From contig JAIKVL010000004.1 in assembly GCA_024685775.1 (NCBI GenBank), positions 70,486 to 134,485 on the forward strand: a stretch of 64,000 nucleotides of DNA. Reading direction: 5' to 3'. Below are positions 15,579 to 41,462 of the stretch, piece after piece; position 1 is the stretch's first letter; every line of letters starts with the position of its first letter. A program made the translations under genes and the position numbers. Source of the DNA: Clostridia bacterium (GTDB taxonomy: Bacteria > Bacillota > Clostridia > Christensenellales > CAG-1252). Under the pieces are notes generated by a model that did no database searches, was not told where the DNA came from, and was given only the letters and a program-made list of their open reading frames with translations.

Positions 15579-15971
15579 TCAGGACGGATCTCCGAATCGG
15601 TGCGGCATCAATTCGGAAAGTTGATAGACGCGAACGACTGCGTCGCTCGCGAGGATAACGGGGATATCTTCGCAAAATTCGGACATAACTTGCAGGCACA
15701 TTCCACAGGGAAAGGCGATATTCGCGGCGGTCGTGTAGACGGCGAGCGCGGAGATCTTGGTCTCCCCGTCCGACACCGCCTTAAAGATCGCGACGCGCTC
15801 GGCGCAAACGGTTGCGCCGTAGCTTGCGTTCTCGATATTCGTCCCGCTGTAAATCCTACCGCTATCCGTCAAAACCGCCGCGCCGACGGGAAAATTCGAA
15901 TAGGGAGAATAGGAATTGCGGCTCGCTTCGGTCGCCGCGTCGATCAAACTGTCAAGCGTCTCTTCTTGCAT
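15579..15971 (-). CDS. cdd: Cytidine deaminase
   Basis: 130-aa ORF with the CAER and PCGMCLQ zinc-binding motifs. Confidence 0.92.
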   Translation of the reverse strand: MQEETLDSLIDAATEASRNSYSPYSNFPVGAAVLTDSGRIYSGTNIENASYGATVCAERVAIFKAVSDGETKISALAVYTTAANIAFPCGMCLQVMSEFCEDIPVILASDAVVRVYQLSELMPHRFGDPS

Positions 15972-15974
15972 AGG

Positions 15975-16442
15975 TCATCTCCTTATATCGAGGGCGGAAA
16001 GGATTTTTTCCTCTTCCTTCCGCATCGCCGCCCGATCTTTTTCTTCTATGTGATCGAATGAAAGTAAATGTAAAAGCCCGTGAACGGATAAATACGCGAC
16101 CTCGCGTTCGTAAGAGTGTCCGTATTCTTTCGCCTGCTCTTTCGCTCGCGCGCGGCAGATCACGACGCTGCCGAGGTTGACCCGCCCCGTCGAGGGATCA
16201 ACGTCAAACGGATAGTCTTCCGCCCGCAAGGGCAATCGGACGTTTTCCAAAGTCGGGAAGGACAAAACGTCCGTCACGCGGTCCACGCCGCGCATTTCTC
16301 GATTCAACGCGCGAATCTTTTCTCTGCCGACGAACGTCAAGTCCGCGTCGGAATCCTCCGCGCCCATAACGGCGAGTCCTTTTTCCCAAACCTTCGCCAA
16401 AAATTCTTTTTCTTCTTTCCCCGCGCCCGTGATCGAGATCAT
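15975..16442 (-). CDS. ybeY: rRNA maturation RNase YbeY
   Basis: HGLLHLLSFDH metallo-motif. I place the start at the internal MISITGAG, where an ATGA overlap couples it to the pgpH stop. The 191-aa track ORF is over-extended. Confidence 0.88.
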   Translation of the reverse strand: MISITGAGKEEKEFLAKVWEKGLAVMGAEDSDADLTFVGREKIRALNREMRGVDRVTDVLSFPTLENVRLPLRAEDYPFDVDPSTGRVNLGSVVICRARAKEQAKEYGHSYEREVAYLSVHGLLHLLSFDHIEEKDRAAMRKEEEKILSALDIRR

Positions 16443-17881: not shown

Positions 17882-17897
17882 AGTACCCTCCGAACCC

Positions 17898-27123: not shown

Positions 27124-27156
27124 AAAAAAACACCTCGCCGCGGCGAGGTGTTTTTT
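27124..27156 (+). terminator. Rho-independent terminator after dhaK (bidirectional shape)
   Basis: A7-CACCTCGCCgcGGCGAGGTG-T6. Confidence 0.88.
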
Positions 27157-27168
27157 CGTTTCGATGCA

Positions 27169-27197
27169 TTGACTCCATTCTTTCCGTTTGTTATACT
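27169..27197 (+). promoter_or_regulatory. Sigma-A promoter for the orphan gene
   Basis: TTGACT (27169-27174), a 17-nt spacer, then TATACT (27192-27197). It begins 13 nt after the dhaK terminator. Confidence 0.55.
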
Positions 27198-27267
27198 TAA
27201 ATTAAAGATTTGCCTTACGATTACGACAATCGGCACTTTTTATTCTATTCGAGAACTCGGGGGGTTT

Positions 27268-27879
27268 ATGGAACTCGTTCAATCCTATTCATTTTTTCTA
27301 AAACTTTTAAGCCGCAAATACGGTGAAGACGAACGCATCGTTTGCATTCTTTTCCTCGACCCGTGCAACGACGATTTGATAAGCGGTTACCTTTCGCACC
27401 GTTTCGATTACTTCAATTATCGACTCGGTGAGCAGATTGACTTTTTCTGCCCCGGATACAGCCATATTGAAAATTCGGAAACGGAAAGATCGTTCAGCTC
27501 TCGGGATTTCGTCGACTTCATACGGCAACTTGAACAATTGACCTCTTGGCGGTATTCCGGCGGGACGAACTTACTGCTTTTGCGCTATTCGGACTGTCAT
27601 CTCCTGTTCGACAGCACATACGATCTTAACTTATCAAAAATGATGATCGACGGGTACCTAACCGATTATCGAGGATTTTTGGAAGATTTGATCCGCTCGT
27701 TAAAAGAGGATGACGCCATATTCTTCGAACGTAGCTACGCCAAACATCAAATATCGCGCCTTTGGAATAATTTTTCGGATCTGCTGCCGAACCTTTGCAA
27801 AAGCATCGTAAATCACATTAAGGATACGGTGAAAATCGATGGATATTTTACTCCGAAGGATATAAGAAAAAGGCGATAG
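27268..27879 (+). CDS. Hypothetical protein, 203 aa, no family recognised
   Basis: ATG preceded by GGGGGG. The segment is visibly AT-richer than its neighbours. The sequence alternates hydrophobic strands (IVCILFLD, IDFFCPGY, TNLLLLRY) with helices, and has no TM helix or signal peptide. The 243-aa track ORF starts inside the terminator, so I reject that start. Confidence 0.6.
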   Translation: MELVQSYSFFLKLLSRKYGEDERIVCILFLDPCNDDLISGYLSHRFDYFNYRLGEQIDFFCPGYSHIENSETERSFSSRDFVDFIRQLEQLTSWRYSGGTNLLLLRYSDCHLLFDSTYDLNLSKMMIDGYLTDYRGFLEDLIRSLKEDDAIFFERSYAKHQISRLWNNFSDLLPNLCKSIVNHIKDTVKIDGYFTPKDIRKRR

Positions 27880-27921
27880 TCGATCCGACCCTCGCTTTTC
27901 AAAATTGCGTTCGTTTCTCTT

Positions 27922-29298
27922 CTACGCCGAACGGCGATTCGGGTAAACCGCCTGCTCGATCGGCATCGTCGCGATGTCGTAAAAGTCTTTTTCCATCCCT
28001 TTGATAATATCGATGATATTCGGATCGAAATGCGTTCCCGATTCTTCCAAGAGGATCTTGAAAGCGTCGTGGGGCGCCATCGGGTCTTTATAGACGCGTT
28101 TACTTACGAGCGCGTCGTAGACGTCCGCGATCGCCATAATGCGCGCGGAAAGCGGGATCTCCTCGCCTTTCAATCCCTTGGGATAGCCCGTTCCGTCCCA
28201 TCTTTCATGGTGCGCGACGGCAATATTATAGGCTTTATCCAAAAACGCTCTGTCGCCGAGATTCACAAAGATGCTATTCACCATTTCACCGCCCTTTTCC
28301 GAGTGCTTTTTCATAATGTCGAATTCCTCGGGCGTAAAGCGACCGGGCTTCAAAAGAATGGTGTCGGGGATCGCGATCTTCCCGATATCGTGCAAAGACG
28401 CGGCGGTCTCGATCTCATCAATCTCCCGATCGGTCAATTGATCGCGATATTTCGGGTATTTCTGCAATTCGCGCGCGATAAGTCCGACGTACTTTTTCGT
28501 TCGGATAACGTGCTCGCCGGTACCGACGTCACGCGATTCGATGATTCCCGCGAGATCCTCGATGACATGAACCTGCATATTGTTTTTTTGCTCCATTTCT
28601 TCGCGCGCGATCGCCATCAATTCTTTCTGTTTATCAAGCATGATCGCGTTACGTTTCGAGATCCCGATCGCCAAAAGATTGACGCAAATCAAAGCGAGCA
28701 TACGCGGAAAAACGTAATGGAATAAGATCTCGATCAGGCGGCGAGGCGTCCCCAAAGCGAACCGTTTGGCGAGATCCAACATCTCTTCATCCGATAACCC
28801 GCCTTTAATGAAGTTTCGATCGGGCAATCCGATAAAGAAACTTCCGTAGACGGTCGCGGGGACCAAAAGCAGCGCCGCGATAAAGACGTAGACCGACATT
28901 TTTTTGCTGTAACGATATTGCGCGATCATCAAAGAAGGGATTACGAGCAAAAGGATCGCGTGGAAGGAAAGCGCAATACCGACCAATGCGATCCCTACGT
29001 ACATAAACGTCACCATTATGACCTTAAACGAATAATGCCGACAAATCGAATTCGGCTTTTTCAAAAGTTTATCGTGGATCACGAAAATAACGAGCGGCGT
29101 TATAAAAATCAGAAACGACACGAGCATCGTGACCAACATGATCACGCGAGGAACCCTAAAAACTTGCAACTCATTCAACCCGAAACAAATAATCGCCAAA
29201 CCGGCGATAATGGTCATGACTCTGATAACAAAGCTATTTGCGCTTGATTCCGCAAGTACGTAAATATCTTTTTGATCGTTTTTGATTAACTCATCCAT
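27922..29298 (-). CDS. Membrane-anchored HD-GYP domain protein (putative c-di-GMP phosphodiesterase)
   Basis: 458-aa ORF with about 6 N-terminal TM helices followed by HDIGKIAIPD...HHERWDGTGYPKGL. Confidence 0.85.
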   Translation of the reverse strand: MDELIKNDQKDIYVLAESSANSFVIRVMTIIAGLAIICFGLNELQVFRVPRVIMLVTMLVSFLIFITPLVIFVIHDKLLKKPNSICRHYSFKVIMVTFMYVGIALVGIALSFHAILLLVIPSLMIAQYRYSKKMSVYVFIAALLLVPATVYGSFFIGLPDRNFIKGGLSDEEMLDLAKRFALGTPRRLIEILFHYVFPRMLALICVNLLAIGISKRNAIMLDKQKELMAIAREEMEQKNNMQVHVIEDLAGIIESRDVGTGEHVIRTKKYVGLIARELQKYPKYRDQLTDREIDEIETAASLHDIGKIAIPDTILLKPGRFTPEEFDIMKKHSEKGGEMVNSIFVNLGDRAFLDKAYNIAVAHHERWDGTGYPKGLKGEEIPLSARIMAIADVYDALVSKRVYKDPMAPHDAFKILLEESGTHFDPNIIDIIKGMEKDFYDIATMPIEQAVYPNRRSA

Positions 29299-29504: not shown

Positions 29505-29561
29505 AAAAAAAAAAGAGAGCCGAAAACCCCTTCCGTTTGCGCGGATCGAATTCTCGGCTCT
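29505..29561 (-). terminator. Terminator closing the phage-like operon
   Basis: On the minus strand, the stem AGAGCCGA...TCGGCTCT (with a large structured loop) begins 7 nt after the holin stop and is followed by T10. Confidence 0.5.
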
Positions 29562-29567
29562 TTTGCT

Positions 29568-29867
29568 TTATGCGGATTTATCCGACTTTTCCTCTTCTTC
29601 GACAGACGCGCTGCTCTTCGCGTGACTTTTCCGTTTCGGGAAAATGTTCTGCACGCCGGAGACCGTCGAATCGATGGTTTGAATGATATTTTTGATATCC
29701 TGTTTGATTCCTTCGAGGGCGTTCAGCCCCTGCGTCAAACTCGTGATCGTAGAAGTGTATTTCTCTTCCCTGCGCTTACTGTCTTGCAACTGATAGACGA
29801 GAAGCGCGAGAAAAAGAAGTGCCCAGACGCCGTTCGACGCCATATAGTCCACCAATTGTTCCCACAT
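29568..29867 (-). CDS. BhlA/UviB-family holin-like protein
   Basis: 99-aa ORF: MWEQLVDYMASNGVWALLFLALLVYQLQDSKRREEKY. It has an N-terminal TM helix, an RE-x-x-Y motif and a coiled tail, matching the BhlA/UviB pattern as I remember it. Confidence 0.65.
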   Translation of the reverse strand: MWEQLVDYMASNGVWALLFLALLVYQLQDSKRREEKYTSTITSLTQGLNALEGIKQDIKNIIQTIDSTVSGVQNIFPKRKSHAKSSASVEEEEKSDKSA

Positions 29868-29868
29868 A

Positions 29869-30786
29869 TCAACCTCCTATTTCTTTGATATATTTCGGGT
29901 AATAGAACCCGAGAAACGAGCGAAGCTCGTCTTCGTTTTGCCTGACGAAACGATCCCGCTGACTCTTCGGCAATCGCCTGGTCTCCTCGACGGCGAAATT
30001 CAGGCGTTTTTCGTAATTCGTCCTTTTATCTCCCGTGTAATCGCGGAATTCTTTTTCGTATTCCGCGTTCTCCTTTTCGAGATTTTCGACGTATTCCCGT
30101 TCCTTTTCACCGAGTTTGGACTGCTTGCTCTTTTCGAACGACTGCAAGATCTTGTCGCGCTTGGCGGTAAGCTTTTGCAGTTTATCTTCCAAGGCGAGCG
30201 CGTAATCGATCTCGAAAGACGCGAGCGCCGAGCGATAGGATCTTTGCGTTTCCTCGATCCTTCCGTCCAGATTCCGCACCTCGCTTTCGAGTTTTGCGTC
30301 CAATCGCGCCCGGTCGTACGCATGGTCGTCCGCAAGCTGTTCTTTTCGAAGATCGAAAACGGTCGAATGCGTCATTCCGTTCTTCGAAAGGGCTTCGAAC
30401 GCCCGCCTTTCTTTATCCGAGTGCAATCGATCGATGCTTCGGGTCTTATCCGAATAATCGTCGTACGCCGACTTCTTTCGCTCGATCAGAGAATCCAGCT
30501 CTTTCGCGGTCTTCGTTTCGAGTTTGTTCTTTCTCTCGGCAAACGAATCGGCGATGGAATCTTTCGCCTTCTCCATCAATTCCTCGTCCGTCTCGGCGTT
30601 CGGCGCGGAAACGGCTCCGTTCGCGTACTCCTCCGCCTTGATCTTGACGCCTTCTTCGTACTCGTTTCGGATCTTGCTCAGCCCGACCAGGATCGGGCGG
30701 GTAGGATCGGAATCGATGAGAGGCCCGACGCCCGAGATCTCTCTCTTCGGAAGCGACCTCGGGGGATCCAAATCGAATAGTTTCAT
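29869..30786 (-). CDS. Phage-module protein, coiled-coil rich (needle or internal-protein candidate)
   Basis: 305-aa ORF preceded by AGGAGG. It is highly charged with heptad-like repeats. No family recognised. Confidence 0.55.
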   Translation of the reverse strand: MKLFDLDPPRSLPKREISGVGPLIDSDPTRPILVGLSKIRNEYEEGVKIKAEEYANGAVSAPNAETDEELMEKAKDSIADSFAERKNKLETKTAKELDSLIERKKSAYDDYSDKTRSIDRLHSDKERRAFEALSKNGMTHSTVFDLRKEQLADDHAYDRARLDAKLESEVRNLDGRIEETQRSYRSALASFEIDYALALEDKLQKLTAKRDKILQSFEKSKQSKLGEKEREYVENLEKENAEYEKEFRDYTGDKRTNYEKRLNFAVEETRRLPKSQRDRFVRQNEDELRSFLGFYYPKYIKEIGG

Positions 30787-30797
30787 ACTTTCCTCCT

Positions 30798-31910
30798 TTA
30801 CGACGTATAACTGACGTCGTTTTCCGATATGGAAAAACCCGCGAACGCGCCGGAGACGAAAGCGTCCGCATACGAAACGACCGTTTCCGTGCCCGCCGAA
30901 TTCCGACGAACGAGAACGTTCGAATCTTTTTTGTAGTAGAAAAAGGGATATCGCATATCCACTTCCACGTTACACGACGGCGCGAAGGTTTTATTTCGGG
31001 TGATCGTCAAAAGATCATACGGAACGAACGCGTTGCCGCAGACGACGGAATACAAACCGCCCTGCCAAAACTGCATCGCCTTCCAAAGCCCGTCCCCGTT
31101 CGAATACAAAAGGAGCGAGCCGCGCCCCGCGCTTTTTACTTCTTTCACCCCCGAAATGACGTTCGCGCAGAGCGCGGGCGTTCCGTCGAAGGGAAAGGCG
31201 TAAAACCGAAGATCCCCGCTTTCGTCCGCGACGGCGGCGATGAAATCGAAATCGGCGGACAATCCCAGCCCGTCGATCAACGCGCAGGACGTCAGTCCGT
31301 TTACGGGGATGGTCTCGATGTGATTCCCCGTGATGACCTTGACTTCACTGTCCGACGTCGAAGAAAGGACGACGAGATCGGAAGCGTACGCGCCGACGGA
31401 TTTATTATAGTAAAACGCCGCGTCGACGTGCTCCGCGTTCATATCCGACACCGTCGTCTGGTTATTCGAACGTTCGTACTTTTCGATCTTTCGTTTTCCC
31501 AAGCGGACGAATGCGATCGCGCGCGTCGGAAGATAGGCGGATCCGATATCGTTCAGATAACGACCGTAACGGCGGATCGCGCCGCCCGAAACCGTAACGG
31601 ACGCGCCTTTATGGTTTCCGTCCGAGACGACGTCGAAGATATGCTCTCCCTTCTCCAAAACGCAGGTCAGGTGAAAGGCGGGCGACCTTTTTTCCGAGAC
31701 GGGGACTCCGTCGATATAAGGCGTGTAAGCGCCCGTCAGATCGAAAAAGGTCATTTCGAATTCGACTTCGCATTTCGCGTCCGAATAAAAGCGGACGCCG
31801 CCGACTCGCTTTGCGGAAGGCAACGAGGTCCGGACGGTCTTGCGTCTTTCGCGATTCGCCATCAATTCTTCCGTATTAAAAAACGTTTCTTTCCGATAAT
31901 CCATTTTCAT
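30798..31910 (-). CDS. Phage-module structural protein, beta-rich (tail or receptor-binding candidate)
   Basis: 370-aa ORF with an ATGA overlap onto the upstream gene. No family recognised. Confidence 0.5.
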   Translation of the reverse strand: MKMDYRKETFFNTEELMANRERRKTVRTSLPSAKRVGGVRFYSDAKCEVEFEMTFFDLTGAYTPYIDGVPVSEKRSPAFHLTCVLEKGEHIFDVVSDGNHKGASVTVSGGAIRRYGRYLNDIGSAYLPTRAIAFVRLGKRKIEKYERSNNQTTVSDMNAEHVDAAFYYNKSVGAYASDLVVLSSTSDSEVKVITGNHIETIPVNGLTSCALIDGLGLSADFDFIAAVADESGDLRFYAFPFDGTPALCANVISGVKEVKSAGRGSLLLYSNGDGLWKAMQFWQGGLYSVVCGNAFVPYDLLTITRNKTFAPSCNVEVDMRYPFFYYKKDSNVLVRRNSAGTETVVSYADAFVSGAFAGFSISENDVSYTS

Positions 31911-33343
31911 TCTCCGAAAAAGTCGACGACCATATCCGCTTCCGTCACCCGAACGCTTTCTGCGGAGGAAGCGATCGTGATCGACAATTTGTCGAAGGGT
32001 CGTTTGACTTTGATCTTATTCAGTCCCGTATGGACGGGGTATAAGAAGGAGACGCCGTCGAGCTCGACCGAGATCAAGGCCTCCCCTTCCGCGCGAGCGC
32101 GCATTTCCCGAAGCAGTTTTTTGCCCCGATTTGCGCCGAGCGTCGTCACGGGCGAACGCCACACTTTATAGGTTGCCGTCGAATTCACGCTGCCGGATCT
32201 GTCGATCAGTCCGAGGAAATTCACGGGATAGTTCGCCTCTGCGATAACGCCGCCGATCGCTTCGTTATTCACGCCGATCATACAGGTGATCGTCAAATCG
32301 TGCGCGATCTCGATTTTTCCGTTCCATACGTCATAGATCAAAAGGCTGTTCGGAGCGTTTCGGATCGCGCTGTCCATATCGAGCGAGCAGGCGAGATAAT
32401 ACTTGCCGTTATGAAACGCGCCGTGCGCTTCGGGCTGATTCGCCGAAAACAGTCCTTCGAGTTCCTGCAAAGTTTTCCCGACCGCCAAACCGTCGAAGAC
32501 GTAGACGCCGTCCGACGCGCTGAACATAATCCTGTCGCCGCAAACGGTGATCGTGTCTTTATGGATCAATCCGACCGAAAGAAAGAGTTTTTTGACGACG
32601 AATTGCGTTTGATCGTTATATGCGGTGATCCTCGCGATCCCGTGCTCGAAAAAGACGTACAGGTAGCCGCCGAAACTCAGGACTTTTATCACTTGCCCCA
32701 TCTCGCTCGAAAACGAGATCGCGCCGCCCTCTTTCAAAGAAACGTTCCAATTCGACGGATTGAAATCGTCGCTGAATCGGAGCGTGAAAGGATCGCTTCC
32801 GAAGCAAGCGAACACGCGGTCGCTATGCGAACACATCGTCGTGATCGGCTCGTTCATTCCGAGATTCTGCGCCGTCATTCCGCGCAAAAAGAAGAGTCCT
32901 TGCGTCGAAGAGAAAAGAAGCCCTTCTCTCTCGTCCAACAAATACGGGATCGCGCATAAGACCTCTCCGTAAGCGTCGAGTTCGGAAAACATCACGAACG
33001 CATTCAAGCGAAGATCGTACAGCATTCCGTCGTCCGCATAGGCGATCAAGCGATCGGTCCGATATTGCGCGGCGTGCATCGTGTAGGAAAACAGCCGCAG
33101 GAAGCGGACTCCGTCGGGCTTACGGATATGCCACGTTCTGCCGTCGATCTTTTCGGCGGCGAGCGATAACCCCGTTCCCGTCTCCAAAACTCCTTTTTCG
33201 AAAGCGAAGTTATAACTCTTCGGAGAGTACGAAAAAGGGAGTTCCTCTTCGGCGACGCGCGTATCGACGCCTTTGAACGAGGAGAGCTTAAAGCGTTTTC
33301 GGGCGGGAGAAGACAGCGTCGAGTTGATAAAGCGTCGGATCAT
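31907..33343 (-). CDS. Phage-module protein, putative tail hub or nozzle
   Basis: About 478 aa from the Met at 33343 (ATGA overlap with the upstream stop; GGGAG 6 nt upstream). It shows repeated beta-propeller-like segments (DGMLYDL, DRVFACFG, GYLYVFFEHG, DGVYVFDG). Its size and position parallel P22 gp10. Confidence 0.5.
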   Translation of the reverse strand: MIRRFINSTLSSPARKRFKLSSFKGVDTRVAEEELPFSYSPKSYNFAFEKGVLETGTGLSLAAEKIDGRTWHIRKPDGVRFLRLFSYTMHAAQYRTDRLIAYADDGMLYDLRLNAFVMFSELDAYGEVLCAIPYLLDEREGLLFSSTQGLFFLRGMTAQNLGMNEPITTMCSHSDRVFACFGSDPFTLRFSDDFNPSNWNVSLKEGGAISFSSEMGQVIKVLSFGGYLYVFFEHGIARITAYNDQTQFVVKKLFLSVGLIHKDTITVCGDRIMFSASDGVYVFDGLAVGKTLQELEGLFSANQPEAHGAFHNGKYYLACSLDMDSAIRNAPNSLLIYDVWNGKIEIAHDLTITCMIGVNNEAIGGVIAEANYPVNFLGLIDRSGSVNSTATYKVWRSPVTTLGANRGKKLLREMRARAEGEALISVELDGVSFLYPVHTGLNKIKVKRPFDKLSITIASSAESVRVTEADMVVDFFGE

Positions 33344-33876
33344 AACCATCTCCCGAACGGCAACGTAATTTCCCTACGCGAAGAAAGAACGTTCGCCAAC
33401 CCTTCTTTGTAACGTTTTTCGAAAAGCGTCGCTTCTTCGAAAAGCATGGATTCGAGCGCGTACTCCGCCGCGACTCCGCTTGCGAAAAGATCCGGGGAGA
33501 CGCGCGGCGGCATTTCGATCGTCCCGCCGAGCGCGGGATAGGAATTCGGCGTGTAACAATATCGCAGGGAGTACGATCCGTCTTCGGCGAACAAGCTTCC
33601 CCCGCGAACTTTACACTTTGCCTTCCCGCCGCCCGAACGAACGAGTTTTACGACGTCGAAAAACCGTTTCGTAAGAGCGGACAGCTCGAACGACCCGTTC
33701 GAAACCGTGATCGATTCCTCTTCTTCGAGGGGCGCGTACTCGGTGATCAAGCGCATATACGCCACGCCGAGCGCGTTTACGAGGCGCGCCGTTCTCTCGT
33801 CCATCGGGCTGCCTTCCGCCGTTAGGTTTTCGCCCAGCAGCGTCGCCGCTTTATTCAATATTTCATTGACTTGCAT
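33340..33876 (-). CDS. Phage-module protein, putative head-to-tail adaptor
   Basis: About 178 aa from MQVNEILNKAATLLG, preceded by AGGAGG. It sits after the capsid gene and before the hub candidate. Confidence 0.45.
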   Translation of the reverse strand: MQVNEILNKAATLLGENLTAEGSPMDERTARLVNALGVAYMRLITEYAPLEEEESITVSNGSFELSALTKRFFDVVKLVRSGGGKAKCKVRGGSLFAEDGSYSLRYCYTPNSYPALGGTIEMPPRVSPDLFASGVAAEYALESMLFEEATLFEKRYKEGLANVLSSRREITLPFGRWL

Positions 33877-33884
33877 AATTCCTC

Positions 33885-34232
33885 CTATCCCCGCGTTTTC
33901 CACGCGGCGTTCATAAATGCTTCCGCGGTCTCGCCCGCCTTTTCGCAGATCTCGCGCTCTTCTTCAAGCTTCGCTTTCCGCTCCCGTTCTTCGAGTTCTT
34001 CCAAGAATCGTTTTATGCGGCGCACATGCGTTTCGCGAAGTTTCGTCACGAGGCGAGCGTCGAGCGCGTCGTTCCAAGTTACGACGATCTCGTCTTCTTT
34101 TCCGTTCAGTCGGACTTCGAAACGGGATCGCTCCAAGTTGTAAAACAAAAGATACCGCTCGTCCACCTCGCGGATCCGATCCGACACGTCGAACACGTCG
34201 CTTCGGATCGGGATCAATCGTTCTTTCCGCAT
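33885..34232 (-). CDS. Phage-module small protein, unknown function
   Basis: 115-aa ORF preceded by GGGAGG. It has a charged helical C-terminus. Confidence 0.5.
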   Translation of the reverse strand: MRKERLIPIRSDVFDVSDRIREVDERYLLFYNLERSRFEVRLNGKEDEIVVTWNDALDARLVTKLRETHVRRIKRFLEELEERERKAKLEEEREICEKAGETAEAFMNAAWKTRG

Positions 34233-34249
34233 ATGCGCCGCCTCCCGCG

Positions 34250-35434
34250 TTATGCCGAAGCCGCGGTAATGCCCGTGATCTTACCCTGACCGCCCGGCTT
34301 GTCGCAGATCATATCCGCATACTTGACGAGGGTCGCGGTAAAGGTCGCGGTTCCCGGCTTTTGCGTAAGGACCTTGCCCTCTTCGCCTTCGAGCCATCTC
34401 CAATCGCAGAGCTGATGGATCTTGAAGTCTTTGCTGCTCAAAAGATACATCGTCCCGTTATCCACGAAGCGTTCCGCGATGACGGGGATTCCGTTATAGG
34501 AGATCGCCTTGAAGCCGCCGTCGAGATTCATATAGTCGATATTCGTGCGGCTCATCGCAAGATAATCGAGGTAGAAACGTCTGACGTCGTAAGACGTGCT
34601 GATGAAATCCACGTCGGACGCGGAGACTTCCTCCAACTTGTCGATCGCTTCTTGGATCATTCCCGAATGGATCGCGCCGGCGTTGGCTCGGATATAAGGA
34701 TTCAGGAACTTGTAGGTCGCGCGGTTGAGCCCGTAAACGAGACCGCTCATATTGAAAAGAGATTCCAATCCGGTCAGCTCGGAGTCCTTGCTGTTTTGAA
34801 GGGTCGCGAAATAGTTCGCGCCGATGAGCTCCGAAGGCGCGGTTCCGTCGATCTTGACGGTGTTTTCGTTATGATCCACCGCCAAAATGCGCCTTTGCGA
34901 GACGATCGGGGTGTTTTGCCCGTCGGCGTAAACGTCGATCAACATTCCTTCGAGGAAATTTCTGACGTTGCTGAACTTGATCAGGTTTCTGTCGCTATTT
35001 CCGGGATTCGCGACGGTGACGCCGAGTTTTCCGGATCCGTTGCCGTACAGCATACGGCTGAAATGGAACTTGCTCGCTTTGAGAAGCCCTTCCATCTCGC
35101 TGTTCAACAGATTGACGAACGCGCCCGCGTTGTTTTCGCTGGCGCGGAGCGCTTTATCCGAGATATCGATCGTTCCGTACAGGTTTTTGAGCGTGGTCGT
35201 AAAGTTCACGTACAAATTGCCGGATGCCGCGGGGAGATCGCCCGTTTCGCTTCCCGCGCCTACGCCGCCGTTTACGCCGTACGGCACGAGACGGACGATG
35301 TTTTTACCCCAAACGTTTGCGGTGGATTGCTCGATTTTTCCGAGAAAAGCGTTCGTTTTGGTGTTGAGTTGGTTGGTGATTACTCCGAGATAAAGCGTCT
35401 TCAACGCTTTATCGGCAGTCGATAAAGAAATCAT
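34250..35434 (-). CDS. Major capsid protein (HK97-fold type by context)
   Basis: 394-aa ORF preceded by AGGAGG and directly after the scaffold gene. The sequence style is typical of Firmicutes prophage capsid proteins (NLYGTIDISDKALRAS..., C-terminal LVKYADMICDKPGGQ). Confidence 0.7.
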   Translation of the reverse strand: MISLSTADKALKTLYLGVITNQLNTKTNAFLGKIEQSTANVWGKNIVRLVPYGVNGGVGAGSETGDLPAASGNLYVNFTTTLKNLYGTIDISDKALRASENNAGAFVNLLNSEMEGLLKASKFHFSRMLYGNGSGKLGVTVANPGNSDRNLIKFSNVRNFLEGMLIDVYADGQNTPIVSQRRILAVDHNENTVKIDGTAPSELIGANYFATLQNSKDSELTGLESLFNMSGLVYGLNRATYKFLNPYIRANAGAIHSGMIQEAIDKLEEVSASDVDFISTSYDVRRFYLDYLAMSRTNIDYMNLDGGFKAISYNGIPVIAERFVDNGTMYLLSSKDFKIHQLCDWRWLEGEEGKVLTQKPGTATFTATLVKYADMICDKPGGQGKITGITAASA

Positions 35435-35435
35435 A

Positions 35436-36077
35436 TTACATCCTCCTTTCCATTATCATTTTTTCCGTCATGGCTCCCGCCTCTTCGAAGGTTTTCGCTC
35501 GATTCGGCGGTAAAACGGAAGCGGCGCCGCCATGCGTGATCAAATCGGGAACGCCGCTGAGGGGAGAGAGTTCGGAAAGATACTCTTTGACGAATCTATC
35601 GCGAATCTTTTCGTTTTTATAGACGTACTTTTCCAAAAACTCTCCGTCTTGCATTATGCTTTCGGGATCTTTGTAGTTTTTCGAAACGGCTTTCCCGAGC
35701 GCGATTTCGAGACAACGCTCGTTTCCCGCGAGTTCGGGATCGGATTTCAAGATCGAACTGATCTCGGTCGCGTACTCTCTCGCGATCGGATATTCTTCGA
35801 CGAAGGACGCAACTTTATCATCCCAGTTTTCCTTTTCGTACAGAGGGGTGGATCTTTCGCCTCCCTTTTCGGCGGGGGAAGATGCGCTTCTCTCCTCCAA
35901 CTCTTTAATCAGCTGACATTTCTTCGTGAATTCCGATTCGAGATTTCGATACGCTTTCCACAGTTCCTCGCCGTTTGCGAATTTTCCGACGGAGACGGGT
36001 TTTTCGTTATCCGAAACGCGTTCGTTTTGATCGTCGTTTTCGGGCAAAGCCGCCGTTTGTTCCATTTCTTCAAGCAT
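35436..36077 (-). CDS. Scaffolding protein
   Basis: 213-aa acidic, helical ORF with the KFANGEELWKAYRNLESEFTKKCQ motif seen in phage scaffold proteins. It lies between the portal and capsid genes. Confidence 0.65.
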   Translation of the reverse strand: MLEEMEQTAALPENDDQNERVSDNEKPVSVGKFANGEELWKAYRNLESEFTKKCQLIKELEERSASSPAEKGGERSTPLYEKENWDDKVASFVEEYPIAREYATEISSILKSDPELAGNERCLEIALGKAVSKNYKDPESIMQDGEFLEKYVYKNEKIRDRFVKEYLSELSPLSGVPDLITHGGAASVLPPNRAKTFEEAGAMTEKMIMERRM

Positions 36078-36100
36078 AATTTACCTCCTTATATTTGCGC

Positions 36101-37966
36101 TTACGCGCCTGCTTCCACGCTCTTGATGAGCGCTTGTCTGCGTTTATGCATTTTGATATGATCGAGAAGGCGTTTCTTCGCAGCCTCGTCGTAGGGATAT
36201 TCTTTTCCGATGATCGCGCGGGTATGTTCCGCAATATGGAGCGCGTCGTCATCCACTTCCTCGCATTCGATTTCGCCTTTGAGGACGCGCTCGTTCTCTT
36301 CTTTCGCCCGATTGACGTGAAGATCGTCGAGTTCTCTCGCGCTTTCCCAGTTTCCGAAGCCGAGCATTTCGAGGATCTTTCGTTTGTTCGAAGCGCTGAT
36401 TCTTCCGTCGTCGTCCGCCAAAAGACCGAGGTTCAAAAGCTCGATCACGCGATTGCGCCTTGCGGACGCCGTTTCGAGGACGTCGCCGCTGACGTCGTAG
36501 ACGACGTCGTCCGAACTGATATCGTTTCGATCGAAGAGCTTGTACTCGATCTCCCCGTTCTCACCGGCGATCCGTTTCATCCGCTGTTTGACCGCGAATT
36601 GTTTATAAAGCCGCAGGACTTGCTTCGCGACTTCTTTGATCGCGCCGCGGATCTCGTTCGCCGTAACTTTGAGTCTCGAATCGTCCTGCTCCATCAAAAG
36701 CGAGATCGCTTTCGCGCTGGTATTCGTGGACGGCGCTTCGGAGTACTTCATCAAGGCGCTGACGCCGCTGATGATCGTAAACTCTTCGAGGAGTCTCTCC
36801 TCTTCGCGGACGAGTTCGGCGGGGACGGAACCGATCTCCAACATTTGCGGCATCCTTCCGCCCTGCCTGACGATAATGACTTTCCCCGGCGAAAGCCCGT
36901 CTTCTTCGAGGTTCTCGACGTCCACGCTTCCGTCCTCGACCGCGAGCACGCCCATCGTCATTCGGTTCAGATATTCGTGCTTACGGTTTTTGACGGCGTT
37001 GAACGCGCGTTGGATCGGGATGATCCTTTCGACGATCGACGCGCCGAAAAAGTTCCCCGGATTCATGACGGAGGTTTGCTTCGCGAAAGGATATCCTCTG
37101 AGCGAGCCTTCCTTATTGATATAGGGAAGCGGTCCGTCGAAGACGATTTTATTCCCCGCGCAAATGACGAGCCTGCCTTGGGGATACGCCGTCGTCGGCA
37201 GTTCGTAACGCTCGATCACCATCGCGTGATTTTCTAGAGTTTCCGCTCCCATCGCGCGGACGAATCCGCTGTAACCGAGCCCGCCGATCGTGCTTCCGCC
37301 CGAGACCACGAACCCGCTGACGCTTTCGGCGGGGACCTCCACGCCCCAAATATCCTCGATCTCCTCGACCGAATACGCTTTCGCGTGGATCAGGCTGCGG
37401 CAGTCGTCGACGTGCGCGTTCGTCACGCTGTCGGGATAGATCTCGAAAGGCGGGACGACTTCGATCTCGACGTCGCCGTCAAAGAGTTCTTCCTTCCCGT
37501 TTTTCCCGATCTTTCTGCCCTTATGCTTATTCCAAGTCACCTTGTAAAGCGCGGTTCCCGTAACTTCGCTCCACATATTCGCTTCGTAAATGAGCTGCTG
37601 TAAATTCAACTCGTTGAAGACGGAATTCAGGATCTTTCCGGAAAAAGCCGCCGCGGCTTTATCCGATTCGTCGGCGGTCAGCGGGCGCACGGACATGCCG
37701 AGTTTAATGGCGCTGAGTTTGGACGTTCGCGTTTCGAGGATGGTCGCGGTATGGTTATAAACTTCGCGCTGCTGCCAAAAGTACTGCTTTCCGTAGTCTT
37801 CGATATCCCCCGTTTGCCCGATCTCGCAGTATTGATTCCCCATGACGAAATTCAAATTCAATCGCCATTGCATTTCAAGGTTTTTCCTCGCTTCGCGACG
37901 CGCCTCGAAATCCTTTCTTATCTCCGCGACGAGGTCTTCCTGCGTTTCGAACTCATCTTTTTTCAT
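36101..37966 (-). CDS. Portal protein
   Basis: 621-aa ORF whose position between the terminase and scaffold genes, and whose size, fit a portal. Confidence 0.7.
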   Translation of the reverse strand: MKKDEFETQEDLVAEIRKDFEARREARKNLEMQWRLNLNFVMGNQYCEIGQTGDIEDYGKQYFWQQREVYNHTATILETRTSKLSAIKLGMSVRPLTADESDKAAAAFSGKILNSVFNELNLQQLIYEANMWSEVTGTALYKVTWNKHKGRKIGKNGKEELFDGDVEIEVVPPFEIYPDSVTNAHVDDCRSLIHAKAYSVEEIEDIWGVEVPAESVSGFVVSGGSTIGGLGYSGFVRAMGAETLENHAMVIERYELPTTAYPQGRLVICAGNKIVFDGPLPYINKEGSLRGYPFAKQTSVMNPGNFFGASIVERIIPIQRAFNAVKNRKHEYLNRMTMGVLAVEDGSVDVENLEEDGLSPGKVIIVRQGGRMPQMLEIGSVPAELVREEERLLEEFTIISGVSALMKYSEAPSTNTSAKAISLLMEQDDSRLKVTANEIRGAIKEVAKQVLRLYKQFAVKQRMKRIAGENGEIEYKLFDRNDISSDDVVYDVSGDVLETASARRNRVIELLNLGLLADDDGRISASNKRKILEMLGFGNWESARELDDLHVNRAKEENERVLKGEIECEEVDDDALHIAEHTRAIIGKEYPYDEAAKKRLLDHIKMHKRRQALIKSVEAGA

Positions 37967-38204
37967 TCTGTTCCCTCCTTTTTTCCGCTTTCTTGATTAG
38001 GCTGTCCGGGCTTTTCGGGACGATCTCCCTTCCGAACAATTCGTACATCTTTTCCATACACGCGCGGCAAAGATACAAGCCGCCCGCTTCCCTTTTCCAA
38101 GGCACGCGCGGCCGAGAGAGATCGGGCGCCACGGCGAACGCGGCGAGATTCTTACAAAACCCGACGTCGCACTTTGCTTTGACTTTCAGTTTTATCAGTT
38201 CCAT
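37953..38204 (-). CDS. Small zinc-ribbon protein
   Basis: 83-aa ORF with CDVGFC ... CRAC cysteine pairs and GGAGGA 7 nt upstream. It overlaps the terS-like gene by 53 nt and the portal gene by 14 nt. Confidence 0.5.
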   Translation of the reverse strand: MELIKLKVKAKCDVGFCKNLAAFAVAPDLSRPRVPWKREAGGLYLCRACMEKMYELFGREIVPKSPDSLIKKAEKRREQNEKR

Positions 38205-38460
38205 TTTCCGTTTCCTCCAAGAGTTTTAATAATCGCTTCTTTTCTTCCGCGAGTTCTTCGTCCGTCATTTTTTCCAAAGCCCCTTCCTCCGAGACGATCT
38301 CCAAATAGGCTTTCAAGGCGGAGATGTCCGGCGGATAATGCTTGCTCGTTACTTTTTGTTTGATGACGTCGCCTTCCGCGGAATACTCCGTCGTCTTTTC
38401 TTTTGCGGTGTAGCCGATCGCCTTTTTGTAGAGAGAGTTTACGAGCCTTTCATCGATCAT
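38152..38460 (-). CDS. Terminase small-subunit-like protein (C-terminal-motif type, no HTH seen)
   Basis: 102-aa ORF. KKAIGYTAKEKTTEYSAEGDVIKQKVTSKHYPPDISALKAYLE resembles the A-x-GY...E...K.TKKH.PPD..A...WL segment of Firmicutes phage small terminases. Confidence 0.45.
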   Translation of the reverse strand: MIDERLVNSLYKKAIGYTAKEKTTEYSAEGDVIKQKVTSKHYPPDISALKAYLEIVSEEGALEKMTDEELAEEKKRLLKLLEETENGTDKTESQSKVRRRVL

Positions 38461-38473
38461 TGTTTCCTCCTTC

Positions 38474-39910
38474 TCAATAGTTTTTCCCGCGCCGACCGAG
38501 CAGTTTGTTCTTAAATCTCGCCTGCGGCGTCAGTTCTTCTTTTTTCGGAGCGCAAGGGCGCGGCTTGCTCATCAGATAATATCGGAGTTCGTCCATCGCG
38601 TGATCGTCCGCCTTTACGGGAGCGTCACCGTTTCCCCAATAATAGCCCTTGATCTCTCGGATCATATGGACGCAATTCCGAAAGATGACGATGCGCGGCG
38701 GTCGCTCTTTGAACCAACTTTTGACGCGCGCGATCCCCGACCAAAGATCCTTGTCGACCGACGTGTTGCAGATGACGCCTTTTTCATAGAAAAGATCGGC
38801 GACCGACCGCAGGGAAGCGAGCGTCTTTTGATTCGCGGCGCTGTCGATAATGCAGCGAAGTCTTCCCTTTTCATCCCGATGCCAGCCGAGTTCGTCCGCG
38901 ATCTCGTGAATGCGTTTCGCGTGGTGATCGATATCCTTTCCGCTCTCGTAATGCTCCGCGACGACGTAGACGTTTCCGTCGTAATCGACCGCGTAAAAAT
39001 GGCAGGACAGCGGATTATGAAGTCCGGGGTCGATCGAAATCGTATCGTACCACTCCCGCGGGATCTCGAACGGATCGACGACGTGGATGCTTTCGTCGAA
39101 CTCGGGATAGACCAATCCCCCTTCGTCGCCGAATTTTCCGTATCGCCTACTTTGGACGCTTTCCTCGTCGAACGCGCCGGTCAAAAGCTCGATCTCCGAC
39201 GGATCAAGATAAGGATTGTCCGCCCATTCCATCGTGATCGACCAGATCTCCGAATTGTTCTTTCGGTTCATAAAGATCTCGTCGTAGACCCACGTCCTGC
39301 CTTTCAAAGGCGTCATCGTTCCCCAGATCTCGCCCTTTCGATCCATTACGCGCATCAGACATTCTTCGTAAACGTCGCGCGGCGGTTCTTCGTCGAACCA
39401 GACGAAATCGAGCGACGCGCCCTGAAAGCGTTCTCTGCCTTGATCCGCGCTTTTGAATCCGATGCGGGAGACGCCGCCGAAGACGTTACGGATCGTTATA
39501 TAATCGATGACGCCGCCTTCGGGCGCGCTTTTTCTGCCCGATTGCATCGTGACGTCCTCGATCCATTCGGGTCGAAGATAGGATAAGATCTTACTTTGCG
39601 ACACCTCTCTTTGGACTTCGTACGTCGGCGAGACGACCCAACCGCAGACGTCTTTCCTGTTTTGCCGAAAGGGGTGGATCCCTCTCGCCCACCAAACGGC
39701 TTCCACCGCGCCGCATTCCGTTTTTCCGCTGCGATTCCCGCCGAAGACCCAGCGATTGCGTTTCGGGCATTTATGGAAGATCATCTGCTTTTCGTGGACT
39801 TTTTCTTTGTTGTATTTTCCGAGCTTATCGTGTTTTTCCCGAAAGGTTTGCAGTCGCTCGATTTCGGCGATCTTCCGTATGATCTCTTCTTGTCCGATCT
39901 TTTTTTTCAT
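38474..39910 (-). CDS. Terminase large subunit
   Basis: 478-aa ORF with the Walker A GGNRSGKT, the Walker B LDFVWFDEEP, nuclease-domain acidic residues (ISIDPG, IIDSAAN) and DDHAMDELRYYL. Confidence 0.85.
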   Translation of the reverse strand: MKKKIGQEEIIRKIAEIERLQTFREKHDKLGKYNKEKVHEKQMIFHKCPKRNRWVFGGNRSGKTECGAVEAVWWARGIHPFRQNRKDVCGWVVSPTYEVQREVSQSKILSYLRPEWIEDVTMQSGRKSAPEGGVIDYITIRNVFGGVSRIGFKSADQGRERFQGASLDFVWFDEEPPRDVYEECLMRVMDRKGEIWGTMTPLKGRTWVYDEIFMNRKNNSEIWSITMEWADNPYLDPSEIELLTGAFDEESVQSRRYGKFGDEGGLVYPEFDESIHVVDPFEIPREWYDTISIDPGLHNPLSCHFYAVDYDGNVYVVAEHYESGKDIDHHAKRIHEIADELGWHRDEKGRLRCIIDSAANQKTLASLRSVADLFYEKGVICNTSVDKDLWSGIARVKSWFKERPPRIVIFRNCVHMIREIKGYYWGNGDAPVKADDHAMDELRYYLMSKPRPCAPKKEELTPQARFKNKLLGRRGKNY

Positions 39911-39974
39911 TTCCCGACACCTTCATTTGCGTTCCGCTCTTCCCATTTTTCGAAAAATGATATATAATAGCGGT

Positions 39975-40757
39975 ATGAAACGCATTTTGCCCGTTTTTCT
40001 TCTCCTTGCGGTGATCGCCTGCTTTACCCTTGCCGCTCCCGCTTCCGCTTCCGCGGAAACCTCTTTTTATTTGAAAGTCGAGCGCGACGGAATCTCTCTT
40101 TATGAAAACACCGCGATCCAAGCCGCGATGTTTACTCTGCCGAAAACCTACTACGTAAAGATCCTTCGCCTCTCCTACGCTCCGACCTATCATTTGATCG
40201 AGTATAACGGAGTCAAAGGCTTGATCAAAATTTCCGATTTTTCGGATACGCCGGAAGAAAACGTCCCGAATCCTTATTACACGTCGACTTCCGTCACCGC
40301 GCATATAGAGACGGTTTTATATTCTTCCCCCTCTTTTTCCTCGCGCACCGAGATCGCCGCGAGCGGGCTTTCTTTGACCTATCTCGGGAAAGTGAACGGA
40401 GAAAAAGGGACGTACGACACGCCCGTCTGGTTCGCCGTCTTGTATGCGAACGAAGTCTATTATTTGCATTGTTCGCTGACGAATAATTTATCTCTGCTCG
40501 AAAGTTCTTTCGCGCCCGTTCATCCAAACAGCGTCGTTCAGCCCGATCCTTCGAACCCCGCAAGCGGGAAAGAAGCCTCATCCGAGCCGACGAAAGATTC
40601 TTTCGACGTCGTTCGACTGCTTCTGATCATCGGAATGATCGTTCCCCTTTTAGTCATCGTCTTTCTTTTATTCAAACCCCGTCGCCGCCCTTCCGCTCCG
40701 CAAAGGAGCCGCCGCTACGACCGCGAGGACGATTACGACGATTATTACGACGATTGA
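39975..40757 (+). CDS. Secreted, membrane-anchored protein carried opposite to the phage-like operon
   Basis: About 260 aa. It has a signal peptide MKRILPVFLLLAVIACFTLAAPASASA|ET, two SH3-like beta segments, a Ser/Pro linker, a TM helix (LLLIIGMIVPLLVIVFLLF) and the tail RRRPSAPQRSRRYDREDDYDDYYDD. The 39756 track start is antisense to terL, so I reject it. Confidence 0.7.
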   Translation: MKRILPVFLLLAVIACFTLAAPASASAETSFYLKVERDGISLYENTAIQAAMFTLPKTYYVKILRLSYAPTYHLIEYNGVKGLIKISDFSDTPEENVPNPYYTSTSVTAHIETVLYSSPSFSSRTEIAASGLSLTYLGKVNGEKGTYDTPVWFAVLYANEVYYLHCSLTNNLSLLESSFAPVHPNSVVQPDPSNPASGKEASSEPTKDSFDVVRLLLIIGMIVPLLVIVFLLFKPRRRPSAPQRSRRYDREDDYDDYYDD

Positions 40758-40781
40758 TCTTGTAAAAATTTCCTCCTCGTC

Positions 40782-41378
40782 TTAAACGCATTGTTCCGTT
40801 CGCGAGAATCCGCTTTCCGCCGTTTGCTGGAAGACGATCACGCGCGTTTGATACCGTTCGGAATAAGCATCGAACGCGGCGTTCTTCATTTTTTCGCGCA
40901 TCTCTCGCGCCTCGTCGTCCTCTTTAATGACCCGATTCAGCGAAACGGAGAACAAAGGTTCGTTACCGAATTCCCGAAGAATCCTCTTTTGATCGAACCC
41001 GAATCGATCGAGCGCGCAAGCGAATTCTTCGAGCGCCCGATCGAACCTTCGATACAGCGTTCGAAGCGAGATCCCGAGTTTTTTCATCAGATCCGATCTT
41101 GCCAGTGTGAATTCGTATCTCTCGCGAAGCAAGGCGGCGTTTCCGGTTTTGATTCCGGAGAGTCCCCTCTCGATCACGTATTTCATATTTACCAAATTTC
41201 TTTTTCTTTCGTTATTCTTAATAAGGCGTTCGTAAAGTCTCATCTGATCGCTCGGATAAATTGCATAGAACCCATCGAGAGCGCATTTCTCCGCGCTCCT
41301 TTCCAGCGCTTCGCAAACGTCATCGATATGCGCGTAACACGAAACGAGCGCCTTTGCTACCAACAATCTGTCTTCCAT
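40782..41378 (-). CDS. Putative transcription activator with a sigma-70 region-4-like HTH (phage late-regulator analogue)
   Basis: About 198 aa from MEDRLLVAK, with AGGAGG 6 nt upstream. LLRERYEFTLARSDLMKKLGISLRTLYRRFDRALEEF resembles region 4.2 of sigma factors and of ArpU/RinA/DUF1492-type regulators. Confidence 0.5.
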   Translation of the reverse strand: MEDRLLVAKALVSCYAHIDDVCEALERSAEKCALDGFYAIYPSDQMRLYERLIKNNERKRNLVNMKYVIERGLSGIKTGNAALLRERYEFTLARSDLMKKLGISLRTLYRRFDRALEEFACALDRFGFDQKRILREFGNEPLFSVSLNRVIKEDDEAREMREKMKNAAFDAYSERYQTRVIVFQQTAESGFSRTEQCV

Positions 41379-41413
41379 TTTTATCCTCCTTCTCAAAATC
41401 GCCCGTTGTAATG

Positions 41414-41427
41414 CGAACAAATGTTCA
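41414..41427. promoter_or_regulatory. LexA (Cheo/DinR) box candidate
   Basis: CGAACAAATGTTCA compared with the Gram-positive consensus CGAACRNRYGTTYC. Both GAAC/GTTC arms are perfect with a 4-nt spacer. It sits at about +1 to +14 of the promoter below. Confidence 0.6.
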
Positions 41428-41434
41428 CATCATC

Positions 41435-41462
41435 AATATATCACGTTTCCCTCAAAAGTCAA
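41435..41462 (-). promoter_or_regulatory. Sigma-A promoter with extended -10 driving the regulator
   Basis: Minus strand TTGACT (41462-41457), a 16-nt spacer, then TGaTATATT (-10 at 41440-41435). Confidence 0.55.

Follow-up and report, generated by a model that had tools for sequence, protein, structure and literature searches.

Gene content of the cassette

In the current analysis, we characterized a compact cassette of phage-derived structural and packaging genes in a Clostridia bacterium (Christensenellales; CAG-1252; assembly GCA_024685775.1, contig JAIKVL010000004.1, positions 70,486-134,485). This whole stretch of 64,000 nt is referred to here as the window, and the cassette occupies window positions 29505-41462. 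An open reading frame (ORF) survey placed 13 genes on the minus strand and one on the plus strand between 29.5 and 41.5 kb (Table 1). Read along the minus strand, they encode a regulator, TerL, a TerS-like protein, a four-cysteine protein, a portal, a candidate scaffold, a capsid, proteins of 115, 178, 478 and 370 aa, a DUF7934 protein and a BhlA-family holin. An earlier note, made from the sequence alone, had described 12 co-directional ORFs running from a promoter to a terminator. All 12 were recovered with the place, strand and order given, but that list lacked the regulator and the plus-strand gene of a 260-aa membrane protein. The tight packing it described was borne out, with intergenic gaps of -53 to +23 nt, two ATGA overlaps and GGAGG-type ribosome-binding sites before most starts, and the hairpin with T10 was found at 29.5 kb as reported. 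The promoter that the note placed near 41.4 kb also exists, but the regulator gene stands between it and terL, and therefore it serves the regulator and not terL directly.

Table 1. Features of the cassette in the order of minus-strand transcription, with window positions and the basis of each assignment.
Feature	Position	Strand	Basis or description
Sigma-70-type promoter of the regulator	41435-41462	-	TTGACT, 16 nt, TG-extended TATATT (TGnTATATT)
LexA (Cheo) box palindrome GAACATTTGTTC	41415-41426	.	Exact GAAC-N4-GTTC
Transcription activator candidate, 198 aa	40782-41378	-	phrog_36 transcriptional regulator, 5.6e-7; sigma-70 region-4-type helix-turn-helix
Single-pass surface protein, 260 aa	39975-40757	+	Signal peptide, extracellular domains, transmembrane anchor, acidic D/Y tail
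Promoter of the 260-aa gene	39940-39968	+	TTCCCA-17-TATAAT; -10 ends 6 nt before ATG
TerL (large terminase)	38474-39910	-	Terminase_6N, 1e-15; phrog_2, 1.9e-42
TerS-like protein, 102 aa	38152-38460	-	Partial phrog_309 match, 1.6e-7
Four-cysteine (Zn-ribbon-like) protein, 83 aa	37953-38204	-	Cys at 12, 17, 46 and 49
Portal, P22/SU10 type	36101-37966	-	P22_portal, 5e-17; SU10_portal, 4e-16; phrog_156, 5.6e-30
Scaffolding-protein candidate, 213 aa	35436-36077	-	Position between portal and capsid
Major capsid protein, podovirus type	34250-35434	-	NF033394 capsid_maj_Podo, 239.8 bits (cutoff 80); phrog_14242, 4.5e-51
Head/neck protein, 115 aa	33885-34232	-	Homologues at same position in 78 loci
Head-to-tail adaptor candidate, 178 aa	33340-33876	-	Position between capsid and nozzle; conserved in 87 loci
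Tail nozzle (predicted beta-propeller), 478 aa	31907-33343	-	AlphaFold2 and Foldseek
Fast-evolving all-beta protein, 370 aa	30798-31910	-	Candidate distal tail or receptor-binding protein
DUF7934 coiled-coil protein, 305 aa	29869-30786	-	PF25588, 1.4e-17
BhlA-family holin	29568-29867	-	Holin_BhlA, 9.6e-14
Intrinsic terminator, operon end	29505-29560	-	GAGCCGA...TCGGCTC hairpin, then T10, read from the sequence

Family searches covered all cassette ORFs with Pfam and PHROGs and ten of these ORFs with NCBIfam as well; outside the cassette, the 64 kb was compared with Pfam. Related loci and contigs from other genomes are designated by L-numbers (L001, L141, etc.). The catalytic motifs of TerL are intact, namely Walker A (GGNRSGKT at 57), Walker B (FVWFDE at 169) and the nuclease motifs ISIDPG at 291 and DDHAMDE at 435. 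The 102-aa protein encoded next is kept in >90 loci, and its residues 2-53 align with positions 194-242 of the 319-position terminase small subunit family phrog_309, suggesting a TerS-like role. A Pfam search of 37 homologues gave neither a helix-turn-helix nor a TerS match, and no DNA-binding domain was detectable. The four-cysteine protein has homologues in 45 loci. The scaffold candidate had no family match in the searches but is conserved in 123 loci, and the capsid does not vary in length among the 82 complete copies that were measured. When PDB sequences were searched with profiles of the capsid, the 178-aa protein, the DUF7934 protein and the TerS-like protein, nothing significant was returned.

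A further indication of particle type, besides the capsid and portal families, came from the 478-aa protein. Its AlphaFold2 model (predicted local distance difference test, pLDDT, 90; predicted template modelling score, pTM, 0.89) matched the Pa223 tail best in a Foldseek comparison with the PDB (7e-20, template modelling score 0.74), followed by VP1, GP4, the PhiM1 nozzle, SU10, T7 gp12 and P22 gp10, and a weak profile match to the SU10 tail protein was also found. As modelled, the protein is folded as a podovirus tail nozzle, from which it follows that the encoded particle would have a podovirus-type DNA exit channel. The neighbouring 370-aa protein is the product of the fastest-evolving gene. 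It has only three homologues in 5.8 billion proteins, it is 26-38% identical to its counterparts in syntenic relatives though their TerL proteins are 79-85% identical, and its slot holds unrelated small genes in other clades. Such variability is typical of a distal or receptor-binding component, for which the 370-aa protein is a candidate; its AlphaFold2 model was unusable (pLDDT 47). The DUF7934 protein is conserved across the whole family and was found at the cassette end in 45 loci. The BhlA holin that closes the operon is not followed by an endolysin gene.

The searches of the cassette and the rest of the window yielded no integrase, repressor, replication gene, prohead protease, tape measure or endolysin, in agreement with the earlier note, and neither a tRNA nor an attachment site (att)-like direct repeat occurs in the 64 kb. 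The GC content of the cassette (0.532) is close to that of its flanks (0.535), in line with the host-like composition judged by eye in that note.

Regulatory region and divergent surface protein gene

The regulator belongs to a family in which Sigma70_r4_2 was matched by 19 of 27 members and DUF1492 by 10 of 27; the window copy itself had no Pfam match. Both the regulator and the BhlA holin occupy the same positions in L001, L141, L142, L143, L146 and L147, and the median ratio of nonsynonymous to synonymous substitution rates (dN/dS) is 0.11 for the former and 0.12 for the latter. The regulator promoter scored 10/12 matches plus the TG extension in the promoter scan, and the same layout is seen in L001, L005 and L141. 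Located 8 nt downstream of its -10 hexamer, and overlapping the expected transcription start, is the palindrome GAACATTTGTTC, an exact copy of the Gram-positive LexA operator consensus GAAC-N4-GTTC (PMC4234289). Of 30 related loci, 24 have this palindrome ahead of the regulator gene, mostly as GAACAAATGTTC, and two more have it with one mismatch. Conservation of the box is accompanied by considerable divergence of the gene it precedes, since the regulators of loci sharing it are only 25-55% identical. Two layouts occur across the loci, in which the box either closely follows the -10 or closely precedes the -35. The chance expectation, estimated by hand from the 8 fixed bases, is ~0.004 per region, and the window as a whole is not enriched in GAAC-N4-GTTC (3 observed vs. 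2.15 expected). A second exact match (GAACAAAGGTTC) lies at 40950-40961, inside the regulator coding sequence. No LexA box was seen at uvrB in the window, so the box lacks cross-validation on a canonical SOS gene of the same genome.

With strong comparative support from the conserved box, the SOS response apparently controls the cassette via the regulator, and the stress-responsive promoter proposed in the earlier note gains support to that extent. The constant adjacency of regulator and operon suggests that the former activates the latter. A LexA box-regulator circuit that appears to extend across the cassette family is new here.

Between the regulator and terL, and in the opposite orientation, lies the gene for the 260-aa surface protein. 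Its 26 aligned homologues, from Christensenellales and Acutalibacteraceae loci, keep the position and orientation beside terL, and the protein had no match in Pfam, PHROGs or NCBIfam. The TATAAT of its promoter (ATTATA on the terL side; window 39963-39975) is invariant in all six syntenic loci compared, and the short distance to the ATG suggests a leaderless mRNA transcribed from a constitutive sigma-70 promoter. The conserved ATTATA was considered as a terL promoter and is better read as the TATAAT of this divergent gene.

In other clades, the motif G[TAG]CA[TC]A[AT]-N3-5-TT[GT], most commonly with GTCATAA as its first part, was found in 27 of 94 terL upstream regions, including those of L002, L015, L021, L023, L046, L047, L055, L064 and L071-L075. 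In 23 of these 27 regions it lies 46-47 nt before the terL ATG. The same motif occurs in 11 of 30 regulator promoters (including L012-L014, L017, L020, L029 and L143). Shuffled sequences gave <1 occurrence and intra-operon control regions 0-1, for a motif that was defined post hoc. It is absent at terL in the window's own clade. Several loci show a -10-like hexamer ~17 nt beyond the motif, ending ~6 nt before the terL ATG, and this spacing suggests a leaderless terL transcript in those clades.

Chromosomal sites, distribution and selection

The cassette is embedded in core chromosome, which makes up the rest of the 64 kb. To its left are rbgA, trmD, rimM, ffh, ftsY, smc, rnc, plsX, ppdK, recO, era, yqfD, groEL, murG and dak, and to its right uvrA, uvrB and murC. 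The earlier note was therefore right to call the flanks chromosomal, but dhaK is not a direct neighbour, since an HD-GYP gene and a 243-aa ORF intervene. Among the genomes compared, L001, L004, L005, L007, L008 and L141 carry the cassette at the same site as the window, flanked by uvrA-DUF4363-DUF421 and, at the opposite end, by Dak/Fe-ADH, for a total of seven genomes. The flanking proteins of these syntenic relatives are 81-97% identical to those of the window and their cassette proteins 26-85%, with capsids that have diverged to 62-68% identity at identical sites. Other lineages have sites of their own. The regulator, membrane protein and operon are found as one unit at gyrA...murC in L143 and L147, and the same unit lies between infC-rpmI-rplT and coaX/hom in L146. 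In L002, L003 and L148, a cassette whose capsid carries a Flg_new domain lies beside thyA-folA-GH2/metallophosphatase; the divergent gene is kept in these loci, but neither a regulator nor a holin gene adjoins. In the nine contexts from other genomes whose neighbours were annotated with Pfam, the cassette was not accompanied by an integrase or replication gene, nor was it part of a larger prophage.

The family is widespread. More than 5,800 capsid homologues were found, many of them on contigs of 0.2-1.75 Mb, and individual capsid alleles are each found on hundreds of contigs, which reach 1.6-1.75 Mb. A scan with one genome per species identified at least 592 species genomes as carriers, of which the best 80 were all Christensenellales or unclassified Clostridia metagenome-assembled genomes (MAGs). 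In a library clustered at 50% identity, the capsid matched 638 clusters at E<=1e-30, and cluster look-ups returned only the names of uncultured "Clostridia", "Christensenellales" or "Acutalibacteraceae".

Core cassette genes keep their length in 94-100% of loci (~80 species). In-frame stops were observed in 1 of 98 TerL, 1 of 131 portal, 1 of 132 capsid and 4 of 91 nozzle genes, and the copies concerned, all in MAGs, include L010, L033, L035 and L041 (nozzle), L006 (portal) and L062 (capsid). Sporadic pseudogenization or errors of assembly could account for them. Several of these MAGs are labelled Bacteroidaceae, Acidaminococcus or Butyrivibrio, which are implausible taxa and suggest mis-binning or mislabelling. 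Median pairwise dN/dS between species ranged from 0.05 to 0.24 for all 12 gene families in which it could be measured, including those of the regulator and holin; no usable pairs were available for the membrane protein or the 370-aa gene. The medians were 0.047 for TerL, 0.052 for the portal, 0.059 for the capsid and 0.24, the highest value, for the scaffold candidate. The GC content of the cassette tracks that of its flanks across hosts of 32-61% GC (r = 0.92). The earlier note had named site, integrase, a larger prophage and truncation beforehand among the points on which its proposal could fail, and had expected low dN/dS of a domesticated element. On all of these, what was found in the relatives agrees with that proposal.

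Several features of the capsid deserve mention. Within the syntenic clade, its central third (residues ~120-280) is 42-62% identical, compared with up to 75-90% for the blocks on either side and 79-84% for TerL, a pattern that points to diversifying selection acting locally, or to exchange of alleles, at an exposed capsid surface. In pairs of more distant species, conservation is highest for the capsid. A capsid subfamily of 458-477 aa, found in L002, L003, L015, L016, L148 and ~20 more loci, carries a C-terminal Flg_new domain (PF09479) that is probably a built-in surface decoration, and its allele P0203 occurs in 450 blocks of the contig index. The closest capsids in a set of 50,697 sequenced phages are 26% identical and belong to actinobacteriophages. 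IMG/VR holds dozens of cassette copies, mostly the same cassette on short contigs called viral. One IMG/VR contig of 60 kb, L131, carries more distant relatives at 2040-19009 (capsid 36%, TerL 42% and portal 38% identical), together with a Lin1244_N replication-type gene and a beta-helix tailspike. This contig probably represents a genuine podophage from the lineage that gave rise to the cassette.

Two observations concern the surroundings. Syntenic genomes differ in what lies between the holin terminator and Dak. This slot holds the HD-GYP gene and the 243-aa ORF in the window (27148-29298) and ulvan-lyase-like and GH16 genes in cassette orientation in L001 (16007-19330), and it is empty in L141 (15877-15958). 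A GH16-like fold has been reported for the putative receptor-binding protein of FpGTA, a gene transfer agent (GTA) of Faecalibacterium prausnitzii (PDB 7quz; PMC12946183). By analogy, the L001 genes may be cassette accessories. Elsewhere in the window, a minus-strand ORF of 2,723 aa (53814-61985) has a signal peptide with the lipobox LLILTFVGC, followed by long Ser/Gly/Val/Ala-rich beta-type repeats. It had no Pfam match, nor had the five longest of the six plus-strand ORFs that overlap it, and it is probably a giant surface lipoprotein or adhesin.

Origin and possible function of the cassette

We consider it fairly probable, from genomic comparison, that the locus is a domesticated, chromosomally fixed, podovirus-derived cassette that no longer replicates, excises or integrates and is kept by the host for making small, short-tailed, DNA-packaging particles. 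As in GTAs, phage-derived structural and packaging genes stand in the host chromosome without lysogeny or replication modules, and shared sites within three lineages, conserved gene lengths, dN/dS and GC point to long-term retention under purifying selection. The integrase, att sites, repressor and replication genes of a prophage are missing from the 64 kb, and pseudogenes are rare in the relatives. The GTA-like interpretation in the earlier note thus gains support from the missing modules, fixed sites, intact genes, dN/dS, GC content and LexA box.

A chromosomal operon without lysogeny or replication genes has recently been described in another member of the gut Clostridia, namely FpGTA (PMC12946183; Nat Commun 2026), so the statement in the earlier note that no podovirus-style element of this kind was known in Clostridia is outdated. 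FpGTA consists of a 10.5 kb operon I with ten ORFs and a 5.5 kb operon II with fibres, receptor-binding protein, holin and endolysin, and its podovirus-like particles of ~40 nm carry ~8.5-9 kb of host DNA (PMC12946183). Compared by order and annotation, the cassette is collinear with operon I (RCH50844-RCH50852), in which TerL, portal, a scaffold-position gene annotated as a Prp-like protein, capsid, an unknown, adaptor, nozzle, a further gene and a coiled-coil gene follow one another. The 115-aa protein corresponds by position to the unknown RCH50848, and the 178-aa protein, which was assigned by position, would accordingly be the counterpart of the annotated adaptor. The DUF7934 protein takes the position of the coiled-coil "TolA", the third most abundant particle protein of FpGTA (PMC12946183). 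A TerS-like protein without a DNA-binding domain and a podovirus-like architecture are common to both systems. In contrast, the capsid of FpGTA is annotated as "N4-gp56 family" and that of the cassette is NF033394; in NCBIfam, the N4-gp56 model matched neither this capsid nor any of 79 diverse relatives, all of which were NF033394. Only the cassette has TerS-like and Zn-ribbon genes between TerL and portal, and a regulator, divergent membrane protein and holin within its main locus, whereas no fibre/endolysin locus like operon II was found in the 64-kb window. The hosts also differ (Christensenellales vs. Faecalibacterium). The two elements may be diverged sisters or separate domestications, and the difference in capsid naming may be due to the age of the annotation in the FpGTA record. 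The cassette is best filed as a GTA-like podovirus-type element of gut Clostridia, a recently described kind, to which it would add an SOS-regulator circuit extending across the family, a surface protein conserved together with the cassette and a very broad range of hosts.

More distant systems provide further comparisons. The alphaproteobacterial RcGTA and CcGTA are vertically inherited sets of structural genes that are under purifying selection and lack lysogeny and replication genes. They have a TerS without DNA-binding specificity, are governed by host regulators (GafA and CtrA), keep accessory genes at other loci, and are of siphovirus type, possessing a tape measure and prohead protease; LexA influences RcGTA. 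Their evolutionary status is analogous to that of the cassette, but the protein families and regulators are unrelated and the phylum is different. PBSX of Bacillus subtilis is a chromosomal, phage-derived and SOS-induced particle of a Firmicute. Its late genes are switched on by Xpf, a small sigma-like positive factor, and it packages host DNA fragments smaller than the element. PBSX spans ~28 kb and has a long contractile tail, the repressor Xre and its own lysins, forming a killer particle that does not transfer DNA. Unlike PBSX, the cassette has a podovirus nozzle, measures ~12 kb and lacks a lysin, so that the likeness would be one of functional analogy in regulation (SOS plus a sigma-like factor).

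Several points weigh against a domesticated, DNA-packaging cassette. Low dN/dS and host-like GC also occur in functional temperate phages, and therefore the case for domestication depends on the missing modules and fixed sites. Moreover, the faster divergence of cassette proteins than of flanking proteins could reflect allele exchange instead of strict vertical descent, and a comparison of cassette and flank co-divergence in the seven syntenic genomes, whose relationships are star-like and whose flank coverage is uneven, gave no signal. On the functional side, the TerS call depends on a partial PHROG match, gene adjacency is the only link between regulator and operon, and the upstream comparisons did not reveal a terL promoter for the window's clade. 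Finally, the window contains no endolysin or clear receptor-binding protein, and therefore the cassette alone may not give release or adsorption.

This last point also bears on an explanation that shares the domestication but assigns the particle a role other than transfer, as a PBSX-like killer or defective particle, a BhlA-based SOS lysis-bacteriocin module or a means of releasing extracellular DNA, with packaged DNA being incidental. PBSX itself packages host DNA without transferring it (PMC12946183). The BhlA family is filed as bacteriocin-related in PHROGs, and the conservation described above would fit any function beneficial to the host equally well. We nevertheless regard such a role as unlikely, since a full packaging motor and an adaptor-nozzle channel under strong purifying selection are hard to explain without packaging and ejection, and a podovirus tail lacks the contractile sheath that tailocins use for killing.

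Mobility offers a different account of the same genes. Capsid-forming phage-inducible chromosomal islands (cf-PICIs) have capsid, portal and terminase genes on a compact island that falls short of a complete phage; they include an integrase, replication genes and att sites and depend on helper tails. A helper-dependent, horizontally spreading satellite of this type, or another integrative element, would explain why capsid, portal and terminase occur here without replication or lysis functions, why different lineages have the cassette at different chromosomal sites, why its proteins diverge faster than the flanks, and why IMG/VR pipelines call many copies viral. Unlike cf-PICIs, the cassette encodes its own tail nozzle, and no integrase, primase or replication gene, att repeat or tRNA target was found here or in the nine contexts from other genomes. 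Its site is fixed within lineages, among housekeeping genes, and its GC content follows that of the host over a 30-point range. A mobile satellite is thus quite improbable.

That only the structural half of a phage genome is present could also be the mark of a recently truncated or decaying prophage remnant without function, the fallback offered in the earlier note. This is hardly credible in view of the relatives, since the same 10-12 kb unit is intact in ~80 inspected species with lengths kept and dN/dS of 0.05-0.24, occupies identical sites even where capsids share 62-68% identity, and retains a conserved LexA operator and regulator. An encapsulin or microcompartment is ruled out by the terminase and portal, and a tailocin by the absence of sheath and tube.

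If the locus is indeed a domesticated, DNA-packaging cassette, a plausible course of events can be outlined. DNA damage would inactivate LexA and free the sigma-70 promoter at 41.4 kb, and the 198-aa sigma-region-4-type regulator would then be produced and would presumably activate the 12-gene operon. Scaffold, capsid and portal would assemble into procapsids. TerL and the TerS-like protein, which has no DNA-binding domain, may then fill these by a headful mechanism with any available DNA; since the cassette undergoes neither amplification nor excision, host chromosome would make up most of it. By analogy with FpGTA (8.4-8.9 kb) and with the packaging seen in Christensenellaceae (4.1-7.1 kb), the packaged DNA would be smaller than the cassette (10.3-11.9 kb). 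Adaptor, nozzle, the variable 370-aa protein and the DUF7934 protein would complete the short tail. The BhlA holin, together with a lysin encoded elsewhere, might release the particles from a sacrificed subpopulation, and the packaged DNA could then be delivered to recipient cells.

Among the forms of capsid-borne host DNA in human stool, GTA-type packaging was found to be the most common, although its genes have been named only for Faecalibacterium, and it has been detected with loci not identified in Christensenellaceae, Gemmiger, CAG-115 and others (PMC12946183). The MAGs with GTA-type reads in that study include QANA01 sp019420265, HGM11616 sp900761075 and Onthomonas. The cassette is a concrete candidate locus for such packaging in other taxa, Christensenellales in particular. 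We tentatively raise the possibility, which we hold at somewhat less than an even chance, that the cassette family, and not FpGTA proper, is the gene set behind the orphan packaging in Christensenellaceae and other gut Clostridia. GTAs have long been considered rare outside Alphaproteobacteria. If the interpretation proposed here is true, the family would be an ancient GTA, mostly vertically inherited and wired to LexA, in at least about 600 species of Christensenellales and Oscillospirales, and the most widespread GTA family known outside Alphaproteobacteria. Its parts beyond the FpGTA operon would be a dedicated sigma-region-4 activator and a surface protein that may mark kin as recipients. 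Virome and prophage pipelines mislabel these cassettes as viruses, and recognition of the family would improve the interpretation of viromes. The locus is present in hundreds of gut and rumen species with an explicit candidate switch, from LexA box to sigma-like activator to operon. A functional locus would mean that DNA-damaging drugs and genotoxins from the diet directly increase gene flow among abundant gut commensals.

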